From: Saccostrea echinata | Taxonomy: Eukaryota | NCBI RefSeq assembly: GCF_033153115.1 | Contig: NW_026889758.1 | Span: forward strand, 17,422,001 to 17,486,000 | Direction of reading: 5' to 3' | DNA length: 64,000 nucleotides | The notes under the pieces: model-generated | What the model was told of the DNA's origin: nothing | Seen by the model: only the letters and a program-made list of their open reading frames with translations | The model's database searches: none | In this document: positions 24,801 to 46,029 of the stretch, one piece after another | Position numbering within the stretch: position 1 is the stretch's first letter | How the letters are laid out: every line of letters starts with the position of its first letter | Position numbers and translations under genes: made by a program

Positions 24801-26377
24801 ATTTAAGAGGAAAAGTACCTATGATTGAACCATTTGTTCCTAATGCACTATATTACCGAAAAAAGACAATAAGGAGGGCAGAAATTATGGAACATAGAAA
24901 CAAATTGGCCAAAGGAGTTCCACAGACGGGGAAACGAAGTTTGTATGATATACCGAAAAGAAAGGTTGCTAGAAGTATGAAGCAGCTGAAAACTGCTAAT
25001 GCTGAGCAAGAGCTGTTAAGTCCGTCCATGAATATTGTCAGACCATTTAGTGATTACAGAGCGACGACTCGACGGGAGGTTCAACAACGACCCCGCACTG
25101 CCATAGGCCTGACAAGTTTGACATCAATGAAAGAGCGAACCAGACCAGTTTCAGAAAACAACCGAGTGTTTTTAACTGAATGCAGCAATGGTAATTCAGA
25201 GGGTGAAAGGGATAACATGATATTGAATGAAAACGATAATTTTTTAAAGCAGTTAGATAATCTTCATCGCGAAAAATATGAAAATAGGTCCAGGATTATT
25301 TGCTCTGCCACAGCAAGAGAAGAATTGATGAACGATATGCGATACTTTAACGGTAGTACAGGCGAGGTTCAGGTACCAAATGACGATGCTTATTTTGACT
25401 GGGAGACCAGTGAAGGGCACCTTAATAGGTTAGAGGATAGGATTAAAAGTTTCTGTGACAAGCTAGAAAAGACAGCAAATAACAAGGACGCACCAAGGCT
25501 TTCTCCTCTAAAGAGATTTTCCATTCAAGATGATAGAGATGTGAGTACAAACTTTTTGCAAGAACATTTATTGTACTTAATCGGGAATAAATGGGGGAAG
25601 GGGGTTGTTCCAAAATATAGATAAGTACCTGCATATGTTGAATTGTACAAAAATGATTCTGGTATATAATTGTTTGGTATGACAAACACGATTTTTTTAT
25701 TCAGTAAGAAATAAACAATTTTTAGCTCAAGTGACCTGAAAGCTCAGGGTGAACTTTTCAGATACATTTTGTCTGGCGTCCATGTGTAAACTTTTCACAA
25801 TTTTGACCTTCTCAAGAACCACTGGATGAATTTCAGCCAAACCTTGCCACAAAGTATCCTTGGGTAAAGGGGATTTAAATTTCTTCAAGTGAAGGGCGTC
25901 ACATCTTTCTAGGGGAGATAATTCAGAATAAGTGAAAATATAATGCATCTTTCAAAATCTTTTTCTCAAGAACCACTGAGCCAGAAAAGTTGAAACTTGT
26001 GTGAAAGTTCCATTACATAGTGTAAATTCAAGTTTGTTCAAATCATGACCCTCGGGGTAGGGTAGGGCCACAATAGGCATTCAAAGGTTTACATAGGAAC
26101 ATATATTTAGGCTAATGAATATGATATTTTGGAAGAAGGTTGATGTAATTCTTTTCATTTCTTACAGGAAAATAACTTTGATCTTAAAGTTCCCAAACCA
26201 GGAGGAACAGTATTCGTTCGTACAAAAATATGCAACAGTCATGAGATGTCATCGGAGGAAGACGTTCACCAGCATGTACGGAGATTTATTCTAACAAGGG
26301 AGAGTAGTGGTGTGGATCAGGTACAACTTCCGGACAGACCTAAATCGGCGTTTGCTGGTTATCAAGAAAGAAGATAA
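18814..26377 (+). CDS. Cyclic nucleotide-binding domain-containing protein (CNBD2-like)
   Basis: Exons 18814-18943, 20976-21063, 22502-22741, 23030-23157, 23735-23916, 24015-24113, 24203-24351, 24468-25540, 26168-26377 splice in frame. First cNMP domain: DVIIAQGEKGNSFFIMLTG...GKSFGEVALMSEDSVRNATVLADEETDLMVISRELF. Second domain: YGSTIVKQGDPPPGLLFIVQG, with a degenerate phosphate-binding cassette. Confidence 0.87.
25721..26100 (+). mobile_element. Truncated Helentron-like element in the last CNBD intron
   Basis: ttagctcaagtgacctgaaagctcagggtgaac...aaaccttgccacaaagtatccttgggtaaagggg; same family as the 56359 element. Confidence 0.7.
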
Positions 26378-27234: not shown

Positions 27235-27432
27235 ATTTAGAGTGATGCCATTTTTCAATTTCTTCAAAGAGAAGCTGTCCTGGACTCTCTGTTGGTCGCA
27301 TATCTGTGTGTCCTTCAAAATTAAGTAAGTTTTCTGATGTTTCTTATTTCCACCAGGCCGCTGAATTAATGCTTTAGCCGCCCCAAGGCTTTGGGATTGG
27401 GAAAACGTTGATTAAAGTTTCTGATGAAGCAG
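27235..27432 (-). pseudogene. Frameshifted PGRP last-exon relic
   Basis: The minus strand reads CFIRNFNQRFPNPKAL / AAKALIQR / FEGHTDMRPTESPGQLLFEEIEKW across frameshifts. It is homologous to [18 protein letters not shown]...[22 protein letters not shown] of the intact PGRPs. Confidence 0.8.
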
Positions 27433-27900: not shown

Positions 27901-28249
27901 ACAAAAATATGTCATACAGCTTTACAGAAATAGCAGGGCCGTTGCCACACGACTAAAGGATCTCAAATTCCATTGTTAACGAATCTTGGGGAAAAGTTGA
28001 AAGAAAAGTTACCAAGATGACAAAATAATATTCATATACAACTGCACCAACAGATTACAGATTAAACAAAGAAAAGGAACAATTGATGGAGCAGTTCGTA
28101 GTTCTTTATTTAAGCGGCAAAGTACCTATGATTGAACCATTTGTTCCTAATGCGCTGTATTGCCGAAAAAAAGACAATAAGGAGGGCAGAAATTATGGAA
28201 CATATAAACAAATTGGCCAATGGAGTTCCGCAGACGGGAAAACGAAGTC
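27901..28249 (+). pseudogene. Degenerate partial duplicate of CNBD exon 8 (source about 24600-24940)
   Basis: Near-identical DNA (gaaaagttaccaag...aaagtacctatgattgaaccatttgttcctaatgc) with indels and an in-frame TGA. Confidence 0.88.
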
Positions 28250-29690
28250 TAATTACCTGGGTAACAGATATTTTTTTATTGATCATGTGTGTTGTCATCT
28301 AATTGTTCATTCTTGATTAATCTGAGATCCTTTATATATATTTTGTTATAAGCTACACATAGATTTAATTCCAGACTTAAAGACGTACAACACGGTGGGG
28401 GAGATAACTCTTGTTATGTTTCTCAGCAGAAAATATAGAATCCAGAGATCAAAACTATCGTAACTTCCGTCAAACAATTTCTCTGTTCTGTTCACCATTT
28501 TCTTTAAATTTATCTTTTGAAAAAGTAGAACTTTTCGAATGTTAAACTCCCATCAAGCTTCGACAGAAATTTCGTGTTTTTTAGAAGTTTACGAAACAAA
28601 TCTGTCCATGGACCATATAATACGCTTGATTTGATGCATTCGGTGTATCTTGTTCTGACGCGCATAAATTGGGCATTCTTGGTTAGCATTAAAAAATTAA
28701 GTAATCTTATTATCAGAAATGACTTTTAATTTACATGAAATTAAACATGCCTTTATATTCATTGTCTTAAAATGCTATGCTGCTCTGTGGTCCACTAAGC
28801 TGATGTTGTCCAGATCAGTTGTTTTCTTATGAATAGAAAATGAAGATACGTTTTCAGTTAGGTGAAATGTCAAGTAATTCTACATTCGAATGCTGCAAGA
28901 AAACATGTTAATATCCAGCTTTTTAAGGTATATATTGACTTTGTGCTGATCTGGAAGGTAATGCGAGATCAAAAAGAATAGAAAACAATATCCGAGAAAG
29001 ATGAATTTTAGTGTACATTTACACTTGATTCTATTTACACCCTTATGGCTATTTTGCCGCGAATATACATATATGCATTTTACATTATTTTATATTTAAC
29101 ATTACTTTTTAGGTACTGTATGTGTTGAACAATGTGTGGATATCGAAGGCAATGTAAAGAACAAACGGGAGGAATCGAAATCCATGTACGAGAAATCAAG
29201 TCTGATTCATTGCAAAAAAAAACAAAACAAGTTCACACCTATTCGGAACACCTAGCAATTTCTTTGAATCTTGATATCATCATGGTAATATTGCAAATAA
29301 TATTCTTTTTAATTAAAAAAAAAGACTTTTACTGTATTAAAGTAATGTGATCCGCCTCTTACTGCAAAATGAAAATATTGGTTTTCTAAAAAGAAACACC
29401 CGTACTACAGAGAATGTATTTTTATTATAAAATATTCCGATATTTCCATTGCGTACTTTAGAACTTAGAATTTAGAATTATACCGATCTGCGTTTTGTAT
29501 CGACTTTCGAAAAAGACTTACTTTTGGGGAACTGGAATCTTGCTCCCTCAATGATATACATGTACTTAAACTGTATAATAATAAATTGCTTACGTTTTCA
29601 TTAACAAAAAGGGTAGCTGTATTTTTTAATTGTTCTGTTGATCACTGTTGAAAGTGCGATCTTTACAAATTTGAGTCAGTTTATAAACTC

Positions 29691-31287: not shown

Positions 31288-33343
31288 TCAGTTTCCATGA
31301 TAAAAAGGCCATGTCTTTAAATCTTGGTATAGGCATTTCCCAGGACTCACTGTGTCTCTAAAATCTCTGTGACCCATCAAAATGAAATTAGTCGATATTT
31401 TGCCTTCTTTCACACCCCTGCGTATCAGATCTTTAGCAGCTCTAAGTGCTTTTTGGTTTGGAAGACGTCTGTCAAAGTTTCCAATGAAGCAAATACCTGA
31501 AAAAAGGAGATAGATCTGTTCAATGACTTTTGTTTCGGTGGAATTTTTCACAAGTTTTAATCTGATTTTCTTTAAACTTAATTTTTTTTTATTCTATACT
31601 TTTCATAAATGTTATCTTAGTAAAAAAAAAATTAAAAGCAATGGTCAGTAAAAAGAATATGAAGAAACTTTTCGTAATTATCATATAGAACATAAATAAA
31701 GGTTAAATAAAGATGTATCATATACCTATGCTGTATTTGTTGAGTCCTTTCGTGTGAGCCCCTTCCTTACCCCATCCACGGCCCTCATATACATTCCCAT
31801 CCTCTCCAATCAAGAAATTGTATCCAATATCAGACCATCCTTAAAATAAGATTGAATATGTCCATCCACTAGTTTCTAACAATTAGAAATACATGTTAAT
31901 TAAGTATGTATAAAAATTAGGTATGTCAAATCGATCAATATTTGATAATCGGTTACTCGGACGATTTTCCGATCAAGTACCTGAGTACTTGATAAAAATA
32001 TGAATACAAGGGGTTTTCTTGAGACCAGTTAAACCCTGTTAAGCCTCAACGATATTTTTGATTGGGCTTGTGTAACTTACGCCACGTTAATTACCGTATA
32101 GCCATGGGCTGTTTTTTTAAAAAAGATTTTTAATAAATAAATGTAGTTTGAAATACGAAAAAATATACAAGTAACCAAGTACCAATTTTAGTATTCGATA
32201 CTCCAACGTTCGATCGAGTACCCTTTTAACAGGGTACCAGTTGACATATTTTTTTATTAAAAAATATGTATGCAACTGTTTTCTCGATCGGTTATAACTA
32301 CGATTTTTCAAAGAAAATTCATGGGGAAAAACACCATGTTAACAAAATAAACAAGCGCTGACAGAAATCCGAATGTATATTAAATGATAAGACCACGTGA
32401 CTTCTTTAAGCTTCAGAAATATTTTTGGAATATCGAATTGACAACCAAATGAAGTTATATCGTTAGACATTTTGTAAATGTTCTTGACTGGATTTAATGC
32501 CAAGTAATCCACTGCTCCGTATGCCCTTCTGTACATAAATGCTACTTTGCGGTCTTTTATATCACAGTTCAAATCATTATCTCTTGTCCGTTAGGGATTA
32601 AGTACGACCACGTTTTTGTTCGAAAGCCACATGCGATTTGTTAACAATGTCGCTGATCATGCACAAGAGTTGCATTCTCTTACTTTTTGTAATACTTAAC
32701 AAAAATACTTTAAAATTTTTATATACATGTTTGAATTTTCATATCTTTTTAAAGAAAACCAATCTGACTTATAATTTGACGAAAGTTGAAACTTTTAATA
32801 CAGGATTATTTTTCATGAAAAATACAAAATGGTTCTTTACCATAAAAAAATCGGACCGAGCGCATTTAAGGAATGAATCTGTCTACACACCTTTGGTATA
32901 AATATGGAAGGTCTGATATGAACGCACTTCTGCTGCACACTGCTCTTCTGTAAACGCTTCCTTACTAGAGGCACTGTGTGAAATAATGACGTATTTTGGT
33001 AGGTTTTGCAGACCATCTACCTTTCCCCCTGGCTGTATTGCTCCCCATTCATTACGGTCTATAAATCTACTCGTAAACAGCTCTAAAATGTAGGTAGTAT
33101 AAAAATAATATTATCAATATGTACAATGTGTATAATCAAAAACTGAAGATCGATAATTCAATCTTTTAAAGAAGTTATTTAATAACCTGAAATATTGACT
33201 CTTTCCAAAGGATCTCTGGAATCCTTTGGCCCACAGTCATATTCCTTTGAGCCTAGTGTATGTAAAAAATCTAAAAGTTTCCGCAGTAATTTTGTGTAAA
33301 CATCTTCTTCAGGATTTATTGCAGTGATGATATTCAATGCCAT
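31288..33343 (-). CDS. PGRP copy B: non-catalytic, with the N-terminal DED-like domain largely deleted
   Basis: Exons 33343-33187, 33082-32891, 31839-31726, 31496-31288 are in frame. Product: [67 protein letters not shown]...YVIISHS...[46 protein letters not shown]...[16 protein letters not shown] exon sizes (192, 114, 209 nt) are identical to copy A. Confidence 0.88.
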
Positions 33344-33412
33344 GAATAAATGTTTCTGAAAAAAAAACCAAATACCTTCAGTGAAGGATATATATATATA
33401 TATTATATATAT

Positions 33413-34309: not shown

Positions 34310-35400
34310 AAGGTTTGTTAAAATAAAACATATTATTATATATTAGAGTATGTTGATTTTAAACCTGTTGATAAAATATCTTAGATAGTATGTGAAGGTT
34401 ATATCAATCAAACTTACTCATTTGGACGTCATTTCAAAAGAATTTTAGTTACTTGTGTTTCATTTAAAACTAAGATGGCCAACCTGTATAATCTTATGGA
34501 TCATAATTCAGCTTCATTAGCTACGGGTAATCAGCATTTAGGTATACTAAATATGAAATAATGCATAAAATATATTTATAATTTAAAAGGGTTTAACTTT
34601 GGTTGAAACCGAAACTTTTCAGTTAACTTTCATTTTACAAAATATATACAATTCGTGATGTAATGTTTTCTATATCAAAAGGTTAACTGTTTAAACAACA
34701 CATATTATAATATTTTAAAGTATGTATCATTTTAAGATTGATTTTAAACCTGTTGATAAATCATCTTAAATAGTGTGTGAATGTTATATCAATCAAACTT
34801 ACCCATTTGAACTCCATTTCAAAAGAATTTTAGTGACGTGTGTCTAATTTAAAACTAAGATGGCCAACCTGTAGAATCTTATGGAATCATAATTCAACTT
34901 CATTAGCTACGAGTAAACAGCATTTAGGCATATTAAATATGAAATAATGAATAAAATATATTTATGATTTAAAAGGGTTTAACTTTGGTTGAAACCGAAA
35001 CTTTTTAGTTAACTTTCATTTTAAAAAATATATACAATTCATGATGTAATGTTTTCTTTATCAAAAGGTTAACTGTTTAAACAACACATACAGTGTATTA
35101 TAACATTTTGAAGCATGTAACATTTTGAGATTGAATTTAAACCTGCTGATAAAATACCTTAGTGTGTGAATGTTATATCAATCAAATTTACCCATTTGAA
35201 CTCCATTTCAAAAGAATTTTTAGGACGTGTGTCTAATTTAATCTTATGGAATCATAATTCAAATTCATTTGCTACGGGTAAATAGCATTTTGGCATATTA
35301 AATATGAAATAATGTATAAAATATATTTATAAATTAAACGGGTTTAATTTTGGTTGAAAACAAAAACTTTTCAGTTAACTTTCATTTTACAAAATGGTAT
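34310..35400. repeat. Triplicated ~385-bp segment covering the putative promoter and first non-coding exon of PGRP copy B
   Basis: gattttaaacctgttgataaa recurs at about 34356, 34740 and 35133. A homologous single copy lies at about 44245-44580, upstream of copy A. Each unit contains a minus-strand GTAAG/GTAAA donor. Confidence 0.8.
34605..34616. promoter_or_regulatory. ISRE-consensus motif GAAACCGAAACT (second copy at 34991-35002)
   Basis: Matches GAAANNGAAACT. On the minus strand it lies about 25 nt upstream of a TATA-like TATAAATATA (34571-34580). Confidence 0.5.
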
Positions 35401-35929: not shown

Positions 35930-37265
35930 AACTTCAATATGCCAACAAAGGAATTGATGCGGTTAATATAAGTAATATTCTTAATCACAAAAGGGTCCAG
36001 TCTTGTATTCCACCATATTTCAAGTTAAAGACTACGCCTTGTATTTCCTACAAATATACATCGACTATTGCTTCCAAACTTTTTAATTACAAGAAACTTT
36101 ACAGGGCCTGGATATCGAATATCTGAAACATAATCCTCCATCGTGTTCATGTTCTTCTTCACCCTATAACTATAGTCCTGCTGGAAACGTTATTACTGGT
36201 GACGTAAATATAGTTGATAATGACGACCTTAGATCACTAATTTTAAAAGGTCCTAAATATAGGGAACCCCAATCCTTCAACTGGCGTCGGAATTTCATAA
36301 ATATTATGGATTCTGTAGAGGATTACGCCAGGCGATGGGCCAGACATGAAAAAGAAGACCTTAACATTTGTCAGAATGGATTAAATGTATCAGATGTATG
36401 TTAAAATCGCGCATTAAAAGATTGAGGGGCAATTTGAGAACCATTTATCCTTCTGTATTCAATAATCCAGAAGTGAAAAAAGAATTAGAAAGATTACATG
36501 ATCAGTACGTACTGGTCCCTGCTGACAAAGCAGGTAACAACATTGTCTTTGTTTGTAAGGCTCATTACATGTATATTAAATGTATTTTAGAGGAACTTGG
36601 ATTTAATTCTACAAGTGGTAATCCAACTTATACTCATAGTTCCCTTTCTAAGGAAGAAATTCTTGAAAATCATATGTCAGTTTTGAATATTTTTAATATT
36701 CCAAACAACCAAAATGAATTTGAATTACCATATCTATATTGGATTCCGAAACTTCATAAAAATCCTTACAAACAAAGATACATAGCTGGTTCCAGTAAAT
36801 GTTCAACCAAGCCTCTTTCTTTACTCCTTACTATGATATTAACCGTAGTGAAGGAGAAACTTTAAGAGTACTGTGCAATAATATATTGGAGAAGTGGTGT
36901 AAATCAGATGTGGATACTTAAAAATTCCAAGGAACTTTTGGAAAATTTAAAATCACAAGATTTTACCAAAATCAACAGCTTAAAAACTTACGACTTTTCG
37001 TCTATATACACAACCATTTCCCACGATAAATTAAAGTTCAGGCTTTTAGATATCATTGACAACTGCTTTTTCAATAAAAATGGAACTCGTAAATTTACTT
37101 ACCTTGTCATTGGTCATTTGCAAAATTATTTTGTTAAAAAAAAACATTCTTATTGTACACAGAAGTACTCTGAAGTTGACATTAAAAAGATGCTGAGTTA
37201 AGTTCTGATTGACAATATCTATGTGGTTTTTGGAGACCAGGTCTTCCAACAATCTATTGGAATTC
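35930..37265 (+). mobile_element. Degenerate Penelope-like retroelement reverse transcriptase fragment
   Basis: Broken ORFs with VLVPADKAGNNIVFVCK, YLYWIPKLHKNPYKQRYIAGSSKCSTKPLS, MWILKNSKELL, LKTYDFSSIYTTISH and VLIDNIYVVFGDQVFQQSIGI, typical of PLE-type RT. Contains stops and frameshifts. Confidence 0.82.
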
Positions 37266-37822
37266 TTTTAGTATTTACATTTAATTTGAGCCTGAAAGAA
37301 AATATATTTTTTAGTCCATCGAAGCTGAAAATTGGCTGGTTGCTAGGGAAATTTCTTTACCCATGTTTCCATGGTAAAAAAATATAGTAAACTATAGTTA
37401 ACTATAGTATTTTTTGTTAGGGTTACTTCAAGTATGAGTTTGATGACGAGTTCCGAGCAATGCCCTTACAAGGGGCAGAAAAAGAAAAAATAAGAATAAT
37501 TGTATGCTGTTGCATTAGTATTAATTGAAACCTCCATACACCTACAAAATTCCTATTTCTTAGGCAAAATATAAAGATCTTAAAACATTGTCAAAGAGGT
37601 TTAATTCCACCAGAAAAGAAGGTCGTAAGTGGTACAAATCATATCATCGACATTTTCAGGCATTGTTTTGTACTGTAAGTACTACAACGTACTTCATGTA
37701 CACGTGTAATAAGTTAAATCCTGTATTAAAGTACGAATAGATGTCAATTTATCATTTGAAGTATTCATTATAAAATAATAGCTTGAAATAACATTATATA
37801 ACCTCGGTCGACATTACTAATA

Positions 37823-39807
37823 TCAATTTCCATGACTAAAAGGCCATTTCTGCAAATCGTGATACAGACATTCCCCAGGACTCGCAGTATTACTAAAATC
37901 TCTGTGACCCTTCAGAATGAAATTAGTCGGTATTTTGCCTTCTTTCACACCTGTTCGAATCAGATCTTTAGCAGCTTCAAGTGCTCTCTGGTTTGGAAGA
38001 CGTCTGTCAAAGTTTCCAATAAAGCATATTCCTGATAAAAGAAGGTAGACATGGTAAAATATTATTTCAGTCACTGAATGGGATATGTACCAAGTTTACA
38101 TCATTTTTTTCCTTGAAAAATGTATTTTAAATCCTTCATAACTGTCGTCCTAATTAATATAAATATTAAAAGCAATAGTTAATAAATGGAATGGGGAGAA
38201 CTGTGCATAATTCTGATATACAAAAATAAGAATTTAAGTGTTTAGACATATATTAACAACACACCTATGCTGTATTTGTTGAGTCCTTTCGTGTGAGCCC
38301 CTTCCTTGCCCCATCCACGACCCTCGTATACATTCCCATCCTCTCCAATCAAAAAATTGTATCCAATATCAGACCATCCTTAAAATAAGAATATGCCCAT
38401 TCACTATATTCAAGATGAGTTAAGGCCGGTACACACGTTAAGATATTTGTATTATACTACGAAAGTATTATAAAATATAAATCTTACTGTGTATACCGGC
38501 CTTTAGATATTACAATGAAGCGCCTTGAAGTGGTAAAATTTTCTGTTTGAATGGAATGTTTTGAGCTTTCTTTTGAACGTTGGTTGTAACACAGTGACAC
38601 GCCTATTTCTTCAGAAAGGAAAAAAAGAGGGTATGTAGGATAGGTATTCACTAAATACAATAGCCAATCAGATTGGCAGGCTACATAAACACCGAGTGAA
38701 CACGTGTTCGACCGATATATACTAGTAGGTTGTGATAACTTCAATAAACAGAATAAATTCATAATTATGTACATATTCTTTGCAATATGTTAATTTTGCA
38801 GACACGGGTGGTCTCTAACTGTCTCTTCTAACTTCATAAAATATCCATTTCAGCAAAACTCATGTTGCTAGCCGCAGAGAGTGAGGTGCCTCATAAAGCA
38901 CTGAGACGAATATTTCTGTCTGGTTTCTACAGAAATGGGCGTGTCATAATGTAACAATAGACGTTCGATAAGAAAGATCCAAACGTACCATTAAACGATA
39001 AATTTTACCGCTTCGATGCGCTTCATTGCATTTCCTCTGAGAATTATTTTTGAGTATACTGATTTGAATTCAGTGAAGGAACGGATCTGTCTACACACCT
39101 CTGTTATAAATATGATAGGTCTGATATGAACGCACTTCCTCTGCACATTGGTGTTCTGTGAATGCGTTGATACCAGAACCGCTGTGTGATATAATGACGT
39201 ACTTAGGTAGGTTTTGTAAATCATCTACCTTTCCCCCTGGTTGTGTTGCTCCCCATTCATTACGGCCTATAATTTTGCTTGTTAATGGCTCTGGAAATTT
39301 GGATAGTATAAAATAAAATATATTATTCACAAGATATCAAATTGAAAAAACTTGAGATCCTTTTCCTTTTATCATTTAAAATAGTGCAATAACCTGAACT
39401 GTTGACTTTTTTCAAAGGTTCTCTGGAATTAAAAAAATATATACATTTTTTAAATTAGAAAATACTCAGCATGCTTCTCTTATTAAAATAAATCAAATTA
39501 TTTTTGTATCGTCAGCATAGAATAAAGTCCCCTCAATAAATTACCTCAATTCTTTAATGGTTTTCTGAGCTTCTTCGATGTATTCAATCGCTCTTTGATC
39601 ACAGTCAACGAAATATTTTAGAAGTACATCATATTTACCAGGTGACAAATACCCCTTAGCCTCAAGAATGTTAAAATCTTCGACCACATTGCCTTTTGGA
39701 TACGGAGCTTCTGTGATTTGTCCAATAAATAACCTCCATGAGTTAAGTTTAATAAAATCTAAAAGTTTCGATAGTAATTTTCTATGCACCTCTTTTACGG
39801 ACTCCAT
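37823..39807 (-). CDS. PGRP copy A: N-terminal death-effector-domain-like module plus a non-catalytic PGRP (amidase_2 fold) domain
   Basis: Exons 39807-39545, 39422-39394 (29-nt microexon), 39290-39099, 38378-38265, 38031-37823 are GT-AG and in frame, with an in-frame TAA upstream of the ATG. PGRP motifs: [66 protein letters not shown]. The N-terminal 88 aa are helical with [22 protein letters not shown]. The PGRP call is strong; the DED call is less certain. Confidence 0.88.
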
Positions 39808-40978
39808 TGTGGTAATTTAAATGTCATGATTGCATATGTTCAATTTCTTTTAGGGATTTTTCTGCAAAATAAAAGCAGATAAATACTTATCAAACAAAAC
39901 GAGAGGAATACAAATTAATTTGATGGTTTATTTCATTGATTTTTTATTCTGTCAGTTATATTTTGTGAAACAACATTTCAGATTGTGTTTTTCGAATGTA
40001 ATTTCATGTTTTCTCCTTTGGTACCATTTAGAGGAATTTATACGTAGTTGAGAGAAAAACTATTCACATATGAATAATTTTTATCTTCATCAAATAACTC
40101 ATTTCAATTTTACTCAGTTTAGTTTTTATTTTTGCCATATTAGATTTTAAGATTTTTCTATAAATGATGGCATATGAGACGTTGCAAAGACGCACTAAAT
40201 AAAGTTACAGGCTTTCTGTTGTCTTAAAATAAACTTCATATGTATATATACATGTACATAACCATAAATAGATCTAGATCCATAATAATTTTCATGAAGG
40301 AGGAACACAGAACTGCCTACACTTTTTATTGCAGAGATGTCATCTAAATCCTCATTTTGGTGGAGTTTCAGAGATACATGGTGTAATTCTTGTATTTTTC
40401 AAATTATGTTGTTTCACTGTGATTCTATTTAATGTATATCAGACTCTTCCTTGTATATCATATCATAAAGGACGTAATTTACATTATTTTCAAATCATTA
40501 ACTGACACAATTTCTAGTTTCTGTAATCCACATCCTTACATACGTGTACCAACTTATAATGACTCTTAATGATGTGCATGTATCTGATCAGTAGCTTGCA
40601 TATCACAATTAATTAAATCTTTCTGCATTAATAAAAAAAATATGACATCCTTCAAATAACTAAATTTTTAAGCATGAAATTTCAAAAGCGTAAAATTGAT
40701 TTTCATAGCGTAATGTAGTAATAAAAGTGGAAGAAATGCTCCAAAAATGAAAGGGTAGATAGGTCAGGGAACAGGGCATGTACCTCGCCAAATATTTCAG
40801 AATATGAATTGAGTTTGAAATTTTTTAAGCATTTATTAATTTCGCGCTGCATATGACTTGAACAAATTAAGCAGTTTTCAAGACAGCTTCAACGACAGAG
40901 CTCATTTGGGAAAACATTCTGTCAATCAATATTTAAAAATCTACGTCTAAACTGCATGAAGTCCTTCATTTTAATAAT

Positions 40979-43275: not shown

Positions 43276-46029
43276 ATTACTTATATTTACATTTGAGACG
43301 AATATTCGAATAGAAATATTACAAAAACGGCCTGCCGTATGTTGTGAGAAAAGATGTTGAATAATTCGAAATTCAAAGAAAAATCATGGATCTCATTCAG
43401 AATTTTAATTTTTGAAAATAGCACTAGATTTTAAATATATGAATAAAAATTAGCTTAAGAAAAGAAAATGATTAAAGAACATGCAGATTTGTTTAAACGA
43501 ATCTGCATTTTAATAATCGTTATATTTTCCCGCCATATATCTAAAACCGGCGATTCCTTGCCGGTCGTTTCCAACCGGCATACGCCGGCAAACGTTCCCC
43601 GTTCAAATGAAGTACAAAGCCAGGTTACCAAAGGTCAAGAGGCACAATGACAAATGAAGTCCTACCCTAGAACTGGAAGTTAAGTTAGCCTACCTCCAAC
43701 ATTTGAATGTTAACGTTGATGATTAGCAATTAAGCTTTAAAATATTCATTGAAAGGCTGTTTGTCCCCTCTTTTTTGTTGAAGAATAGTTAAATCATGAT
43801 AATTTGGTAATGTATTAATAAAATGTGGTTGTGAAAGGAATTTGTAACCCTTCCCCACGAAATAGCATTTTCGTGTTTGGACAATTTTCCCTTCTTTAAT
43901 TAAATTTATTTATTTTATTTTTGCTTTTCAGTTTGTTTTTTTTTTCAGGCGAGTTGTAATTTTTTTTTCTGGCTACCCCCCCCCTTCCCCTATCGTGCCT
44001 GTCTTTCAATACTGTCAGTACTTTGATTTTTTAAAGTATGTCTTCACAACAAGGTGTAAATATTTCTTAGTAGTGTTTTAACATCAAATTTTGACCAGGA
44101 AGACATGACCAACCCTAAATGATGCAAAGAAACACAAAACTGTCTTCCCTTTATGTTAGTATAATTATTGGTATAATGTAATCTCTACCAAAGGATTAAC
44201 TGTTAAAATATTACATTAAACATTCCAGTATTAGTTTCACAGTGAGATTAATTTTAAATCTGTTGACAGAATATCTTAAATGGATTTGAAGGATATCATT
44301 ATCAAACTTACCAGAAAGAGCCACTGGAACATCATTTTGTGAACTTGTACGACAGAATTTTATTGACGTGTGTCTAATTATAAAACTATGATGGCAAAAC
44401 GATTTTTCTTATGAATGACAATTTTACGTTATCAGCAACGGTTGAACAGCATTTTTTGCATATTAGATTAGAAAGAATGCATTAAATATATTACTATTTT
44501 ATCAGGATTTTACTTTTGATTGAAGTCATAACCCATCACTTAACTTTCATTTTCACAAAATATTGTGAACATCGAAGTCTTTGTTGTGCAAAGTCCTTCA
44601 TTGATTGAAGAAATAGAGGATTTTTCTAATTTCTCCTTCAGTTTTATATATTAGTTCTTTAAAAACTCCCACTTCACCTAAACGTCAACTGTAAGTGCCT
44701 CTTGTATTATCCTCGCAGCACTAACATGGTAATGTTCTCTTCTACATTCCAGAGGTGGGATGTTGTCAGAACAGAAAGAAATGGTCATATTCACCTACAG
44801 GTATTTTAACTAAGTATTATTTTTTTTTTTTGTAAATTTTAAATTTTGGTATCCTTTCTTTTCTATTTGTACGAACTTTTGTTTTTGTATAAGAGATCCG
44901 ACCTCGACTTGCGTAAATATCTCAACGGCCCAGAATGTGTAAAGTAAAGTATCTTAGAAAAGACTACAATTTTTTTTTAATTTCATGACATAAAATAACT
45001 ACATGTATCGAAAAATGTATGCAAAATTGATTAACTGATTAAAGCTACAAGTCCATGTATGATTCAGCACTGTCTATCTAAGATATTACGGTAAATGCAT
45101 ATACAGTTGTATATGTCTTTAAAAGTCATCTGACCTATATATACTGTACATAGACATTTAAATGTGAAATAAGCACACAATCATTCTCAAAAGTGCTTTG
45201 GTATTTAAGTGTTTATTGTGAAATATTTTGAATGTCTTGAAAAAGTTGAGATATTCGTTAATAGTTCTGACGGATAACGTTCCTCTCATAAGGTAAGTTT
45301 TAATGAGAGATAAGTTCCGTAATTGAAGTAAGTTTTAATTAGAGATACGCAGTGTTCATGGAAACGTTCACCATGCTTATCATTTATATAACATGTCTGC
45401 ATCATGGTAATAATAAATATATCTATTCTTAAATTATTGTTTTTCTAAGCTGTGCAGCAGAAAGTATGAAAGAGACGAAAAGACATTTTTACATGAAAGA
45501 TTAGTAGTGAAAAAAGCTGAAACTATGCAAGGTTTTACAATTTAACTCAACTGGAAAAGAAAAACCTTAGGACATTTTTCAAGACGTTTGGTTAAAACGA
45601 TCTACAAAAGTAATCAGGATCGTTGCATTTTAACATTGCATGCATATGAATATCGCAAACAACATTTGATCGAGTCGGATCAATGAAAATTGAGGCACGT
45701 TTTGCCATGTCCCTATTCCCTTTAAACTCTGGATCGATATTCTTTAAACTGGAAATGTAAATGGCTGAGAGCTTATTATAGTCTTATCTAAAATACGTAA
45801 TCATTCCATAAGTAAATATCTCATTCTTTCATCGTGAAGTGAAGCCTGCATTTTCAATGTGTAATATATATATTTCGTATATTTTTGAAAATCTTTGAGT
45901 TCAACATTTTCAATCTTAAATCCCTTTCAATCCAAATTTAGACACACAATTTTAAGAATTTCGAGAATCTCCAGGCATTGTTAAACCGTGCAGAGCGATT
46001 GCAAAATAATGTACGAAAAAAATTGACAT

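Follow-up and report, generated by a model that had tools for sequence, protein, structure and literature searches.

A DED-PGRP gene and its DED-less neighbour in the oyster Saccostrea echinata, with a possible role for the neighbour as an inducible competitor

Two PGRP genes lie in tandem in the oyster Saccostrea echinata, and the locus raises the question of what the downstream copy, gene B, can do when it has apparently lost the N-terminal module that the upstream copy, gene A, carries ahead of its PGRP domain. An earlier note on this DNA proposed that B binds ligand without signalling and competes with A. The window, by which we mean the whole 64-kb stretch that was analysed, covers positions 17422001-17486000, and the S. 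echinata genome searched alongside it comprises 923 Mb. Both genes are on the minus strand with A upstream of B. The spliced translation of A is RefSeq XP_061173305.1 (268 aa) and that of B is XP_061174341.1 (223 aa; length and printed sequence agree), both auto-named 'peptidoglycan recognition protein 1-like'.

Gene models and transcripts

The features of the two genes, in window coordinates, are these.

44160..44925, minus: putative promoter and first-exon module of A; present once, with its donor below 44312 and one IRF-type site at 44543-44553
39545..39861, minus: gene A DED exon; start ATG 39807, coding 39807-39545, ancestral ATG 20 nt upstream and out of frame
39394..39422, minus: gene A linker microexon, 29 nt; protein identical to the RefSeq model
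39099..39290, minus: gene A PGRP exon 1, 192 nt
38265..38378, minus: gene A PGRP exon 2, 114 nt
37823..38031, minus: gene A PGRP exon 3 and stop, 209 nt
34353..35395, minus: putative promoter and first-exon module of B; 386 bp in 2.7 copies, donors below 34418 and 34803
33187..33355, minus: gene B exon with the annotated start (ATG 33343); remnant of DED helix 1, probable eroded middle remnant, microexon-derived linker
33343-33187, minus: coding part of that exon, 157 nt, ending in phase 1
32891..33082, minus: gene B PGRP exon 1, 192 nt; B-type diagnostic residues
31726..31839, minus: gene B PGRP exon 2, 114 nt; carries the DAP-type Arg, differs from A at 4 nt and 0 aa
31288..31496, minus: gene B PGRP exon 3 and stop, 209 nt; SPG replaces CPG

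As the earlier note had it, the three PGRP exons are intact and equal in size in the two genes (192, 114 and 209 nt), and the 157-nt exon of B is open in the correct phase, the frame of B being open over 223 aa. The duplicated unit is colinear from the 3' untranslated region to the promoter, and gene B arose by duplication of the whole gene and has a promoter of its own. All 13 candidates found with the last exon of B in the genome match it, the 11 beyond the A/B pair being at most 53% identical, and no processed DNA copy of the B 5' exons was found in the genome.

Five runs contain part of B, and four of them, from two studies, were examined as assembled contigs; the runs are unrecorded as RNA, and the RNA nature of the contigs rests on their GT-AG joints. 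The joints 33187-33082 and 32890-31838 occur in all four runs and 31722-31492 in three, with GT-AG ends and 0-1 differences per exon, and contigs span 33187-33356 with 0-1 differences. The truncated exon of B is spliced to PGRP exon 1, and B is expressed; the earlier note had allowed that B might be silent, and spliced B contigs were found in every run examined. Alongside B, two of the four runs also contain a contig whose differences are those expected of A; all the runs were chosen by their match to B, so that its lack in the other two is no sign of absence, and contig depths are not comparable between A and B. Two B variants were noted in the contigs: M195K, a return to the consensus, and D41A, which lies in the DED remnant. 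No stop or frameshift is among the variants listed for the B exons, beyond which stand 29 substitution and 4 indel entries.

The ATG of B aligns with the out-of-frame ATG 20 nt upstream of the A start, and the B start position is also that of the S. cucullata A type. By these alignments, B keeps the ancestral start and S. echinata A uses a newer one. At 39796-39861 of the window, the ancestral A start opens a 10-codon upstream ORF overlapping the ATG in use, and there are four ATGs in all upstream of the A start. This upstream ORF could lower the translation of A, or be an allele or an assembly error; given the out-of-frame ATGs upstream, A may be the weaker partner.

The DED of gene A and its loss in gene B

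The N-terminus of A has no match to Pfam PF01335. A profile search over 1.84 billion representatives, however, gathered 92 proteins at E <= 0.001, A among them, and 25 of the 91 relatives of A match PF01335 at E <= 0.01, three of them passing its cut-off. A 64-sequence family profile matches caspase-8 DEDs (E 1e-5), and a model of the A N-terminus from 64 sequences has five helices (pLDDT 84.7). With Foldseek, the model matches a caspase-8/cFLIP DED at TM 0.75 and probability 1.0, but with an E of only 0.16. With VIA-align against 48,161 chains, the top 11 matches are all DEDs (Z 9.6-12.1), those of PEA-15 and caspase-8 being matched; the best has Z 12.1 and rmsd 2.0 over 84 aa, and pyrin domains come next at Z 9.3 and below. 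On this modelling the N-terminus of A is a divergent DED of an oyster family, and the 'DED-like' label of the earlier note is borne out by the profile, the model and the structural matches. A single-sequence fold of A (pLDDT 32) was discarded, a 4-sequence profile of A searched against the PDB gave repeat-protein artefacts only, and the Atlas feature score of 0.89 for a DED was treated as a lead only.

The DED family of A also occurs on TIR, NHL and death-domain proteins. The DED-PGRP architecture was found in two Saccostrea species and also in Ostrea edulis, where the PGRP domain is degenerate. In S. cucullata, XP_062620951.1 and XP_062603016.1 are of A type and XP_062620919.1 is of B type; in O. 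edulis, XP_055999562.1 joins a DED-like module to a degenerate PGRP domain and XP_048733651.2 joins HEPN_DZIP3 to PGRP. All of these fusions are auto-named, and they resemble A and B in that a non-catalytic or degenerate PGRP domain lies behind a cytosolic N-terminal module. Pfam detected no DED in the four Saccostrea and Ostrea DED-like PGRP fusions scanned, and our literature search found no paper on the S. cucullata or O. edulis PGRP fusions.

Several related sequences were observed along the way. S. cucullata XP_062610816.1 (P0079; 125 aa) is mostly a DED, 48% identical to that of A in the alignment, and is possibly a DED-only decoy, a mirror image of B. The A-type XP_062603016.1 (P0003) is without the last DED helix and the linker, which is a second truncation or a gene-model error. 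At L006:1288-2541, a gene encodes an A-family DED and then an unnamed 230-aa domain that is conserved in Crassostrea virginica. Within the window, 27236..27431 (minus strand) is a frameshifted relic of the last exon of a third PGRP, with a second piece at 28282-28374 (minus); the relic resembles the O. edulis HEPN_DZIP3-PGRP (E 1e-11) more closely than it does A (5e-6) or B, and a weak upstream piece matches the end of the O. edulis HEPN region (E 0.002). Judging from these matches, a DED-PGRP may have taken the place of a HEPN-PGRP at this locus. The stretch 27904-28248 is a partial 87% copy of the coding exon 24602-24940 of the adjoining plus-strand gene. Between the A 3' end and the B promoter, 36087-37300 holds broken ORFs with no Pfam match, which we take to resemble a retroelement remnant.

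In gene B the DED family profile scores 1.1 bits compared with 82.7 bits in A, hhalign gives B a probability of 2% over 18 columns against the DED, and Atlas features gave no usable match. By these scores B has no foldable DED. A six-frame scan of the window and of all the loci retrieved showed no second DED exon in the 64 kb, nor therefore any alternative exon there that could restore the death domain, an outcome on which the earlier note would have abandoned its reading. The 5' ends of the two genes are nonetheless homologous, as the note had claimed, their local score of 59 being reached by 0 of 1000 shuffles (mean 22.7, maximum 37).

The claim that B kept only the first helix, followed by a short unrelated stretch, needs amending, as the middle is probably a remnant of the DED exon. 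The S. cucullata B type (XP_062620919.1) is without helices 2-3 and the last DED helix, and its 29-aa piece aligns gap-free to residues 43-71 of the A DED (p 0.0005); the middle stretch of B aligns in turn to this piece with one 14-aa gap (p 0.012). By themselves the B pieces do not match A significantly (p ~0.2), and at the DNA level the middle 50 nt give p 0.17 against the A DED exon and p 0.026 against exon plus intron. The B middle is thus linked to the DED by way of the S. cucullata piece, and loss of the DED in the B type looks stepwise from these alignments. All inferred deletions in B keep the frame. Across the two species, the B-type N-terminus shows little conservation, being identical at 24 of 53 positions, against 74 of 98 for the A type.

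The last 29 nt of the B exon match the A microexon at 24 positions, in agreement with the earlier note, which also had B run into the end of the A intron before it. The latter is one of two equal readings. The B junction matches the A intron end at 7 of 8 nt; over 11 nt it fits the A intron end and the A DED-exon end equally, with 7 matches each. The sequence fits equally well a deletion reaching into the end of the intron and an exact loss of the intron, and does not separate the two.

The PGRP domain, selection and history of the pair

The PGRP/Amidase_2 domain scores 77.1 bits in B and 78.5 bits in A (family cut-off 26), and its best PDB matches are PGRPs (E 1e-45). In amidase PGRPs the zinc ligands are His, His and Cys, and five key residues are listed in the excerpted text of PMC8347126. 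Both genes are without two of the zinc ligands, the first His being Ser87 and the Cys being Ser205 in B, with the same changes in A. The domain was rightly called non-catalytic in the earlier note, with IISH and SPG where amidases have HH and CPG, a pattern that agrees with the non-catalytic chain 1yck_A. A and B are identical at all 19 groove and catalytic-site positions compared. The DAP-type Arg (R137 in B) is present, as is the Gly-Trp pair (G117-W118), which has a role in DAP-type binding. This Arg is the counterpart of R254 of PGRP-LE, which is presumably position 84 of chain 2cb3_A. The groove residues kept in B predict peptidoglycan binding, with the caution that the DAP-type Arg does not always predict specificity (PMC8347126, excerpt). 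The B-type PGRP domains are more basic (+6 and +7) than those of the A type (+2 and 0).

Neither A nor B has a hydrophobic leader, and both proteins are accordingly predicted to be cytosolic. In B, no signal peptide or transmembrane segment was found, the best 19-residue hydropathy being 0.37 in the first 100 aa and the remainder being PGRP domain. A signal-anchor reading suggested by the hydrophobic N-terminus of the S. cucullata B model was rejected, as B is without such a stretch. The N-terminal extension of that model has a weak match to repeat DNA (E 0.07); as the model is without the ancestral Met and its start perhaps comes from repeat-like sequence, it may not represent a working gene.

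Over 170 PGRP codons the pairwise omega of A and B is 0.23 (bootstrap 0.13-0.40). When the 29 amino acid differences are polarised by the S. cucullata A types, 21 fall on the B branch and 3 on the A branch, with 5 on neither. Assuming an equal split of synonymous change between A and B, the branch omega is ~0.38 (0.22-0.68) for B and 0.08 for A. A neutral frame of 223 codons stays open in only 0.7-4.5% of simulations. Taken as sequence estimates, these values indicate that B is constrained, clearly less than A (4-5 times less); the earlier note had named a dN/dS near 1 as fatal to its reading, and both the pairwise and the B-branch values lie below 1.

The DED-less B type is common to S. echinata and S. 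cucullata, as judged from the linker and PGRP exon 1. In a tree of this region (7 rows), the two B types group together, the S. cucullata one being P0007, with support of 91/98, just under the bar for a starred branch; trees joining A and B by species are rejected with the same 7 rows (p-AU 0.008 and 0.0005). Six PGRP exon 1 residues are B-type in both species. In the last-exon tree, S. cucullata A and B group together instead (82/92), and in S. echinata the middle PGRP exon differs between A and B at 4 of 114 nt and 0 aa. Taken together, that grouping and the near-identical middle exon suggest gene conversion at the 3' end. The A/B synonymous divergence is 0.4-0.5 in the other two PGRP exons, with no stop and no frameshift. 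In S. cucullata the A and B types are on contigs identical in size, which are probably one contig.

The role of gene B

Upstream of B, the module that precedes A is present in 2.7 copies, its splice donor conserved. The unplaced 5' ends of a B contig (62 nt) and an A-like contig (80 nt) end within 4 nt of each other when set on these donors; the last base of the B contig 5' part fits the second unit of B, and the unit ending at 34803 fits the contigs best, while another B contig has 313 nt of 5' sequence without placement. The first exon of B is placed by deduction from contig sizes and not by direct mapping. Were the second unit the one in use, B would gain 9 residues from an in-frame ATG, for a length of 232 aa, and would still have no DED.

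Perfect ISREs, by what we take to be the consensus, lie at 34605-34616 and 34991-35002 in units 1 and 2 of B, ~125 nt above the presumed start and beside an IRF-type site shared with A; A has no perfect ISRE. Units 1 and 2 each hold two IRF-type sites within 250 nt, and such pairs occur in 0 of 244 background windows, in a test made after the motif was seen and with the two copies counting as one duplicated site. By chance, 0.43 ISREs are expected in the window. Oyster IRF1 binds the ISRE (PMC13524488, excerpt). Two simple patterns for NF-kB-type sites had no match upstream of either gene.

Given the above, the explanation that we favour, tentatively and at a little under an even chance, is that B, once induced, competes with A in the cytosol, taking up the peptidoglycan fragments that A binds but relaying no signal, and damps A. 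Under this scenario, A would bind DAP-type peptidoglycan in the cytosol and cluster on it, and the clusters would nucleate DED-DED assembly with FADD- or caspase-8-like partners without Imd or RHIM. B would be induced through the IRF sites and would either sequester ligand or join the A clusters as a DED-less subunit, and could thereby raise the threshold or end the response. Candidate partners of A are the L033 gene with a DED and a death domain, and 17 loci matching tandem death domains. A FADD-like query matches 20 of 33 candidate places, tandem death domains accounting for 17 of these, and at one locus a DED exon lies upstream; these matches make DED partners for A plausible. L033:1485-2816 and L010-L017 belong to an expanded FADD-like family with tandem death domains, of which at least one has a DED of the divergent type of A. 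As anatomy, the 'ligand-binding, non-signalling paralog' of the earlier note is well supported by the sequences. Counting against the competitor reading are the laxer constraint on the B branch, the weak conservation of the B-type N-terminus, the doubtful S. cucullata B model, the more basic B-type domains, the origin of both ISREs in one duplicated site, the ATGs upstream of A and the uncertain predictive value of the DAP-type Arg.

A helper or stand-alone role for B fits as well as that of competitor, and we regard it as somewhat unlikely. B could hand peptidoglycan to A or another receptor, like the PGRP-only form of fly PGRP-LE, or itself act on bacteria inside cells like the non-catalytic mammalian PGLYRP1. 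The intact groove under purifying selection and the IISH/SPG pattern seen in 1yck_A suit such a binder; the more basic B-type domain, found in both species, also fits a separate effector, which the IRF-type promoter would serve too. PGRP-LE presents ligand to PGRP-LC (PMC4309185, excerpt). Without a signal peptide, however, B lacks the extracellular setting of those helpers, and in S. echinata it has kept both a promoter of its own and its linkage to A; linkage may be kept in S. cucullata too, on its contigs of identical size. Regaining of a DED by read-through splicing from A, which would make the B exons a second ligand-binding cassette for A, is highly improbable. The two genes share a strand and their exons are both in phase 1, but in each of the four B contigs extending to the boundary, PGRP exon 1 is spliced to the exon of B itself (contigs drop rare forms, and a minor isoform is possible), B has its own duplicated promoter module, and the window offers no other DED exon.

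The remaining alternative, that B is a slowly decaying duplicate still transcribed through its kept promoter, with conversion from A mimicking constraint, we consider unlikely. It would account for the stepwise erosion of the N-terminus, the nearly homogenised middle exon and the by-species grouping of the S. cucullata last exons, and a broken third PGRP copy adjoins. Yet with the homogenised exon left out the B-branch omega is still 0.44 (0.22-0.82), with 0.45% of bootstraps reaching 1. Two exons have diverged at synonymous sites to 0.4-0.5 free of stops and frameshifts, every inferred deletion is in frame, and the six B-type residues of PGRP exon 1 are common to both species.

For B as a competitor, the closest working analogy is Drosophila rPGRP-LC, which binds peptidoglycan, gives no signal and resolves the response (PMC9496462, excerpt). 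That protein arises by alternative splicing of a membrane-receptor gene, a PHD domain standing in for the intracellular part, whereas B is a separate cytosolic gene with a DED remnant only. Drosophila PGRP-LF, the analogy chosen in the earlier note, is like B a non-signalling paralog that restrains a PGRP receptor (putatively so for B), but the comparison is a poor one: PGRP-LF spans the membrane and fails to bind peptidoglycan (PMC9496462, excerpt), whereas B has no membrane segment and keeps its groove. B also resembles duplicated, truncated death-fold regulators. Among these, cFLIP-S, PEA-15 and the POP/COP proteins act as death-fold decoys. What they have lost is the effector part and not the death fold, the reverse of B, and the note's likening of B to them is a poor fit as well, because decoys need an intact fold and that of B scores 1.1 bits. 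A is most like Drosophila PGRP-LE, a PGRP of the cytosol that is not catalytic, carries its signalling part at the N-terminus and has the DAP-type Arg; the N-terminus of PGRP-LE is a RHIM region signalling to Imd, whereas that of A is a DED fold with a putative signalling role.

The DED-PGRP architecture of A is the less expected and newer part of these results, the decoy idea being a familiar theme. Neither a DED-PGRP fusion nor such a pair is described in the titles and abstract openings that our literature search brought up, or in the excerpts of PMC4892480, PMC4346834, PMC9835746, PMC3308963, PMC9334734, PMC4309185, PMC9496462, PMC8347126 and PMC13524488. According to the excerpted part of PMC9835746, molluscs and brachiopods yielded neither Imd nor PGRPs with a RHIM, and whether bivalve PGRPs replace NLRs as intracellular sensors is posed as an open question in that of PMC3308963. 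The DED-PGRP fusion is a concrete candidate link for PGRP signalling in molluscs. Its natural DED-less twin, B, provides a ready-made control and perhaps a tolerance switch in this farmed species. It is conceivable, though doubtful, that rock oysters built an Imd-independent cytosolic PGRP-DED receptor feeding a FADD/caspase-8-type assembly and paired it with a linked, interferon-factor-induced DED-less decoy. If so, an antiviral-type signal could turn down antibacterial sensing.
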